This document shows, one piece after another, positions 1 through 107 of a stretch of 64,000 bases of DNA. Below the pieces are notes generated by a model. The model made no database searches and was not told the DNA's origin. It saw nothing but the letters and a program-made list of their open reading frames with translations. Positions within the stretch are counted from its first letter, which is position 1. Each line of letters starts with the position of its first letter. Origin of the DNA: Escherichia coli (GTDB lineage Bacteria > Pseudomonadota > Gammaproteobacteria > Enterobacterales > Enterobacteriaceae); assembly GCF_003334335.1 (NCBI RefSeq), contig NZ_QOWQ01000030.1; one strand, 5' to 3'. The position numbers and the translations under genes are program-made.

Positions 1-76
1 ACGCGAGGCATCGTCTTAACGAGGCACCGAGGCGTCGCATTCTTCAGATGGTTCAACCCTTAAGTTAGCGCTTATG
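1..76 (-). mobile_element. Terminal fragment of an IS186-like insertion sequence, truncated by the window edge; the inverted-repeat end lies at 64..76
   Basis: Positions 64..76 are the exact reverse complement of the 13 bases at 63988..64000 (cataagcgctaac); flanking bases extend the match to 15 bp. No ORF fits 1..107. Flank ggaattatcccc resembles the G4-N6-C4 target I recall for IS186. Identity from memory, not aligned. Confidence 0.5.
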
Positions 77-107
77 GGAATTATCCCCGGCTTTTTTATG
101 TATGGTC

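Follow-up and report, generated by a model that had tools for sequence, protein, structure and literature searches.

Our analyses make it very probable that the window, the whole 64,000-nt stretch of DNA examined here, is a segment of the Escherichia coli chromosome running from nupC to fabB, reversed relative to the K-12 numbering and ending in a copy of IS186 at each edge. This insertion sequence belongs to the IS4 family and has a size of ~1.34 kb. The DDE transposase of the family attaches to the terminal repeats and cleaves a target formed by a G-run and a C-run at staggered positions ~10 bp apart, and gap repair after cleavage gives rise to the direct repeats that flank the insertion sequence. 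The left copy sits in the stem-loop of the bidirectional terminator of pdeA and nupC, with its transposase gene on the plus strand and directed toward nupC, and the right copy would be a rare, lineage-specific insertion in the fabB-yfcJ spacer at GGGGATACTCC|TCG, where it would separate yfcJ from any promoter located upstream. Both copies are the known element, which has been familiar from E. coli for a long time and is active there (PMC6307192), and nothing in our results changes existing knowledge of IS186. For annotation purposes, the edges of the window are mobile-element ends and not unique sequence, and the 16-nt inverted match between them needs no further explanation. The features on which this reading is based are collected in Table 1.

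Table 1. Features at the two edges of the window
Feature	Position	Strand	Basis
Terminal 76 nt of IS186, on the side downstream of the transposase gene	1..76	+	76/76 identity to strain 720632 (L001 4001-4076) and to K-12 IS186C
IS186 right inverted repeat (IRR), 23 bp	54..76	+	Reverse complement is CATAAGCGCTAACTTAAGGGTTG
nupC-side copy of the 10-bp target-site duplication, GGAATTATCC	77..86		Empty site AAAAAAACCGGGGAATTATCCCCGGCTTTTTT; junctions in 720632 and K-12
Residual half of the pdeA/nupC bidirectional terminator (CCGG + T-run)	87..98		Predicted in the empty site, none in window 1-400
nupC CDS (nucleoside permease)	108..1310	-	Annotation of 100%-identical genomes
fabB CDS	62532..63752	+	Annotations transferred to the window from ETEC4073 and FORC 064; stop codon read
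Predicted fabB-side target duplication (GGGATACTCC if 10 bp) in the target GGGGATACTCCTCG	63978..63987		Inferred from the empty site and the ETEC4073 duplication
Outermost 13 nt of an inverted repeat of IS186, CATAAGCGCTAAC	63988..64000		13/13 to the IS186 end; similarity break at 63987

The left edge of the window is the right end of an IS186 copy beside nupC

A first-pass annotation, made from the sequence alone, had read the left edge as an IS186 terminus adjoining nupC and had proposed an alignment to an IS186 reference as a check. This reading proved correct in an alignment to the annotated IS186C of K-12, the right end of which is identical to the left edge at 76 of 76 positions. Positions 1-1500 of the window show 100% identity to many phylogroup-A-like E. 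coli chromosomes. In strain 720632, the DNA beyond the left edge leads into an element of 1,339 bp extending from CATAAGCGCTAAC… to …GTTAGCGCTTATG, which has perfect terminal inverted repeats (23 bp as measured), encodes a 370-aa transposase on the plus strand, and is identical over 1339/1339 positions to the feature annotated as "insertion sequence:IS186C" in K-12 (NC_000913.3). The 370-aa InsL open reading frame of relatives that are 100% identical across the left junction scores 133 bits against the NCBIfam model NF033592, "IS4 family transposase," for which the cut-off is 115 bits. The remainder of the left copy, with insL on the plus strand and reading toward nupC, is predicted from these relatives to lie to the left of the window. 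When the edges were compared with the inverted repeat CATAAGCGCTAACTTAAGGGTTG, the left end (54-76) matched at 23 of 23 positions and the right end (63988-64000) at the outer 13 of 13. Genomes with an empty site align with the window from position 76/77 onward, and the nupC stop codon (108-110, minus strand) is 31 nt from the IS186 end. In strain 720632, an ISKpn26-like IS5 element, located just upstream of its IS186, additionally interrupts pdeA (L001 1-2709).

In a genome without the insertion, the left site reads AAAAAAACCGGGGAATTATCCCCGGCTTTTTT and lies between the convergent genes pdeA and nupC. The target within it was read as CCGGGGAATTATCCCCGG, of the form GGGG-N6-CCCC, which bears out the earlier suggestion that the G/C-rich flank reflects the target preference of IS186. 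A target-site duplication, for which IS186 is characterized by a length of 10-11 bp and which the first-pass annotation had also proposed to look for, was read at the left site in the relatives 720632 and K-12, where GGAATTATCC is present on both sides of IS186. Terminators were predicted on both strands of the empty pdeA-nupC site, and the same prediction over positions 1-400 of the window returned none. As judged from these comparisons, the left IS186 would have made the 10-bp duplication within the hairpin of the bidirectional terminator, splitting the terminator. With the shared terminator removed by the left copy, transcription out of IS186 could run antisense into nupC.

The consensus target of IS186 is reportedly given by SaiSree et al. 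2001. Two further IS186 targets resemble that of the left copy in form. A full IS186 is found at 338-1676 of plasmid pEC488-3 (NZ_CP109877.1), in the target GGCGGGGAAAATCCCCGCC and with the duplication GGGAAAATCC; this plasmid is 70 kb in size, and its IS186 sits in a G4-N-C4 terminator-like hairpin adjoining an antirestriction gene. Approximately 740-800 of the IS186 matches in the collection were plasmid-borne. A capture of IS186B (1,338 bp) has been described with the duplication GGGGTGCCCCC (PMC12102499). Our literature search returned no paper in which IS186 was found together with nupC, yfcJ, or fabB.

IS186 occupies the pdeA-nupC hairpin in both orientations

The left junction was found in the orientation of the window in 465 of the 5,426 complete E. 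coli genomes, as counted with a 200-nt query across the junction that was covered to at least 80%. A mirror query, made up of the other IS186 end and the same nupC flank, found the opposite orientation at the same position in 477 of the 5,426 genomes, K-12 strains included. The pdeA-nupC terminator hairpin thus carries IS186 in ~17% of complete E. coli genomes, with the two orientations about equally common. For example, IS186C of K-12 MG1655 (insL3, b2394; NC_000913.3 2514273-2515617) is the identical 1,339-bp element, with 0 mismatches, and shares with the left copy the pdeA-nupC site, the nupC-side junction, and the 10-bp duplication (window 54-86 versus NC_000913.3 2514244-2515650), but it has the opposite orientation, so that IRL faces nupC in K-12 and IRR faces nupC in the window; accordingly, two matches to the junction query (H49 and H50) begin to align at position 54 only. 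The K-12 element is annotated at 1,345 bp, which adds 3 target-derived bases on each side. The occurrence of two orientations at one site with the same 10-bp duplication suggests repeated, independent, and site-specific hits on one hairpin. Recurrent site-specific insertion of this kind has been reported for the lon promoter, where IS186 inserts repeatedly just upstream of the gene, at one position and in either orientation (PMC3045373).

An IS186 end interrupts the fabB-yfcJ spacer at the right edge

Positions 62501-64000 of the window align to all 5,426 genomes, and in 24 of the 25 top-ranked genomes listed this alignment stops at query position 1487, which corresponds to window position 63987. 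For instance, ML35 is colinear with the window without a gap over positions 1-63987, differs from it there by 9 mismatches, and has unrelated sequence from 63988. The uninterrupted spacer reads …GAGACGGGGATACTCCTCGCCTTGCGCTGCATTCTGGAGTAATGCATG, in which ATG is the start of yfcJ, and the breakpoint is 29 nt upstream of this start codon; the window reads …GGGGATACTCC followed by CATAAGCGCTAAC, as against GGGGATACTCC|TCG in the empty site. The IS186 end that had been proposed for the right edge is therefore present in so far as it is visible, because the last 13 nt of the window are those of the IS186 terminal repeat and start exactly at the similarity break. The right target, GGGG-N6-CTCG, is only a partial fit to GGGG-N6-CCCC.

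The inverted match between the two edges, from which the first-pass annotation had started, was confirmed in that positions 64-76 (GTTAGCGCTTATG) are the exact reverse complement of positions 63988-64000 (CATAAGCGCTAAC). Its length had been given as 15 bases, whereas the perfect match extends over 16 nt (64-79 versus 63985-64000; pair I22 in our inverted-repeat search of the window). Of these 16 nt, 13 belong to IS186 and 3 to the target, namely GGA at 77-79 and TCC at 63985-63987, which are target-derived at both edges and must lie outside IS186 because ETEC4073 has CCT at the corresponding bases. The accompanying argument that a 15-mer would be very unlikely to recur by chance does not hold when all positions are compared against all, since exact inverted 16-mers are then expected at ~0.5 (analytic) to ~1.3 (Markov simulations) per 64 kb; the match is unexpected only when the last 13 nt are used as a fixed query, for which the chance expectation is ~1e-3. 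Because inverted 13- and 16-mers are this frequent by chance, the case for IS186 rests on the identity of the sequence and not on its recurrence. On that ground, the proposal that the same IS family is present at both edges stands: each copy of the 13-mer forms the outermost part of the IS186 inverted repeat and is placed exactly where similarity to IS-free E. coli breaks.

We also considered that the right-edge 13-mer might be a chance match or part of an unrelated repeat such as a REP, with an insertion sequence at the left edge only. Exact inverted 13-mers are indeed common in 64 kb in an all-against-all comparison (~30-50 expected and 94 observed), and a REP element is located nearby, downstream of fabB; we nevertheless hold this explanation to be extremely improbable, given that the 13-mer begins exactly where colinearity with ML35 and other genomes ends, that it coincides precisely with the outer end of the IS186 repeat and occurs in the window at the two edge sites only, even allowing up to 2 mismatches, that its chance expectation as a fixed query is low (see above), and that ETEC4073 has a full IS186 in this spacer at a distance of 1 bp. 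An assignment of the 13-mer to REP/BIME elements, which are imperfect GC-rich palindromes of ~35 nt dispersed in many intergenic copies and which the first-pass annotation had named as an alternative, was likewise rejected, the 13-mer having only its two edge copies and the REP-like repeats of the window lacking it. Such REP/BIME-like GC-rich palindromes, unrelated to the IS186 ends, are found at 2911-3011, 60258-60350, and ~63757-63820, and the longest inverted-repeat pairs of the window (I1, I2, and I7) are REP/BIME-like repeats.

We infer a complete IS186 for the right copy, and its 13 nt are also compatible with a truncated copy, a lone repeat, or the junction of an IS186-mediated rearrangement. 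If the right copy is IS186, the sequence past position 64000 would continue as …TTAAGGGTTG and then into the IS186 interior. Because both IS186 repeats are identical over 23 nt, the 13 nt at the edge would be the same in either orientation. A copy with IRL first would read TTAAGGGTTGTGG and have its transposase on the plus strand, in direct orientation relative to the left copy, and a copy with IRR first would read TTAAGGGTTGAAC, making the pair inverted. At the far end of the element, the yfcJ leader would read …TCGCCTTGCGCTGC, and the partner junction would be …GCGCTTATG, 9-11 nt ending in …ATACTCC, and then TCGCCTTGCG. The right junction, searched as an exact 34-nt sequence, had no match in the species-representative genomes or the metagenome contigs, and 0 of the 5,426 complete E. 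coli genomes contain this junction; the partner junction (IS186 end plus yfcJ leader), searched as a degenerate pattern, was not found in the metagenome contigs.

The right copy separates yfcJ from its upstream sequence and probably alters its transcription. A simple promoter scan detected no sigma-70-like promoter in the fabB-yfcJ spacer, and for this reason it is an assumption on which side of the insertion the yfcJ promoter lies. An extra and rare IS186 copy 29 nt upstream of yfcJ, a transporter gene, may change yfcJ expression. The situation resembles that of lon in that the insertion is just upstream of a gene but differs from it in locus and in that the loss of expression was measured at lon, whereas the effect on yfcJ is a predicted one.

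ETEC4073 carries IS186 in the same spacer at an adjacent position

Among the 5,426 complete genomes, junction queries in both orientations identified IS186 in the fabB-yfcJ spacer only in ETEC4073 (NZ_CP122660.1, transposase QDY26_RS07225). The element is complete, has 0 mismatches to the reference copy, carries its transposase on the minus strand, and is flanked by the duplication GGATACTCCT. ETEC4073 is like the window in using the same spacer and the same G-run target and in also having the nupC copy, relative to which its fabB-yfcJ copy is inverted, but its junction is shifted onward by 1 bp (…ACTCCT|CATAAG versus …ACTCC|CATAAG in the window). Over the 64 kb, ETEC4073 and the window differ by 11 mismatches and one G-run difference, and 5 of the differences from the window are shared between ETEC4073 and ML35. 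The closest complete E. coli genomes over the two outer 25-kb segments of the window also still differ from it by a few bases.

Taken as sequence comparisons, these data indicate that the right insertion of the window is rare and most likely an independent event adjacent to the ETEC4073 position, which is favored because ML35, with an empty site and 9 mismatches, resembles the window no less closely than ETEC4073 with its 11. Alternatively, the two insertions might be one event shared by descent, with the 1-bp shift due to a later indel or to an assembly error. The closeness of ETEC4073 to the window would fit this scenario, as would possible indel errors in the ETEC4073 assembly, in which the nupC-side transposase is annotated as frameshifted and a G7 stands against the G9 of the window. 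We consider it unlikely, since ML35, empty at this site, is no less close and shares 5 differences with ETEC4073, so that common descent needs a precise loss in ML35 and its relatives; moreover, the extra T of ETEC4073 does not lie in a homopolymer run, and the lon promoter (PMC3045373) illustrates that IS186 can hit one site repeatedly and in both orientations. An independent right insertion accordingly remains our preferred reading. The nine-G run is located in the fadL-yfdF spacer (41240-41250), and its difference from the G7 of ETEC4073 may mean that this homopolymer varies in length or that one record was assembled incorrectly.

A more far-reaching possibility, which we regard as quite unlikely, is that IS186 has a second natural hot spot, comparable to the lon promoter, in the fabB-yfcJ leader, with independent hits on neighboring positions in strains that are not related; combined with the nupC copy, the 64 kb would then form an IS186-bracketed unit able to invert or amplify, with the insertion switching yfcJ expression.

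The IS186 pair as possible contig edges and potential substrates for recombination

The coincidence of both edges with IS186 may also have a technical origin, in that a short-read contig would have broken at a multi-copy repeat, an explanation that is compatible with the identity of the edges as IS186 and to which we assign roughly even chances. It would fit the 76 nt of IS186 at the left edge, which correspond to a k-mer overlap of ~77, the 4-12 IS186-matching places found in each of the closest genomes, which point to several IS186 copies per genome, the absence of the exact right junction from all 5,426 complete genomes, and the report that K-12 shotgun assemblies break at IS186, including the nupC copy (PMC3045373, Table 6). 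On the other hand, 13 nt of the element are all that is visible at the right edge, and the contig would need to extend slightly past the window.

With an IS186 copy at either side, the 64-kb block is enclosed by 1.3-kb repeats. Two identical repeats of 1.3 kb are substrates for RecA-dependent recombination, and IS186 copies 64 kb apart could recombine to give an inversion if they are inverted or a duplication or deletion if they are direct. The rearrangement of the block that the first-pass annotation had raised is a generic scenario, and no sign of it was detected within the window, which is colinear with ML35 over positions 1-63987. It is conceivable that the two copies have already recombined, by inversion, duplication, or transposition of the block, such that the outer neighbors would not be pdeA and yfcJ. 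General knowledge of RecA-dependent recombination between such repeats makes this scenario possible in principle, as do reports of IS-flanked chromosomal integrations involving IS186B (PMC12102499), but we judge it very unlikely in view of the colinearity with ML35, of the ancestral order of block and flanks that ETEC4073 keeps with its two copies inverted relative to each other, and of the loss of fabB that a deletion of the block would entail. fabB is essential without supplementation with unsaturated fatty acids. In the relatives, each IS186 has its own duplication and the block is at its ancestral position, which, as far as these genomes can inform on the window, argues against a composite transposon, in which two complete copies would share one duplication at the outer ends of the whole unit and the unit would be at a new location.

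The nupC-fabB block includes evgAS, oxalate and fad genes, and the Yfc fimbriae. A structured RNA was rejected as an explanation, an Rfam scan of the whole window having found only a tRNA-Arg. This tRNA gene, with the anticodon CCT (37754-37828, minus strand), has yfdC and dsdC as its immediate neighbors, an arrangement also seen in ML35 and ETEC4073, and we take it to be argW. In K-12, the CPS-53/KpLE1 prophage is presumably located at this tRNA-Arg gene (argW), and its presence there would account for the nupC-fabB distance of ~64 kb here versus ~73 kb in K-12.
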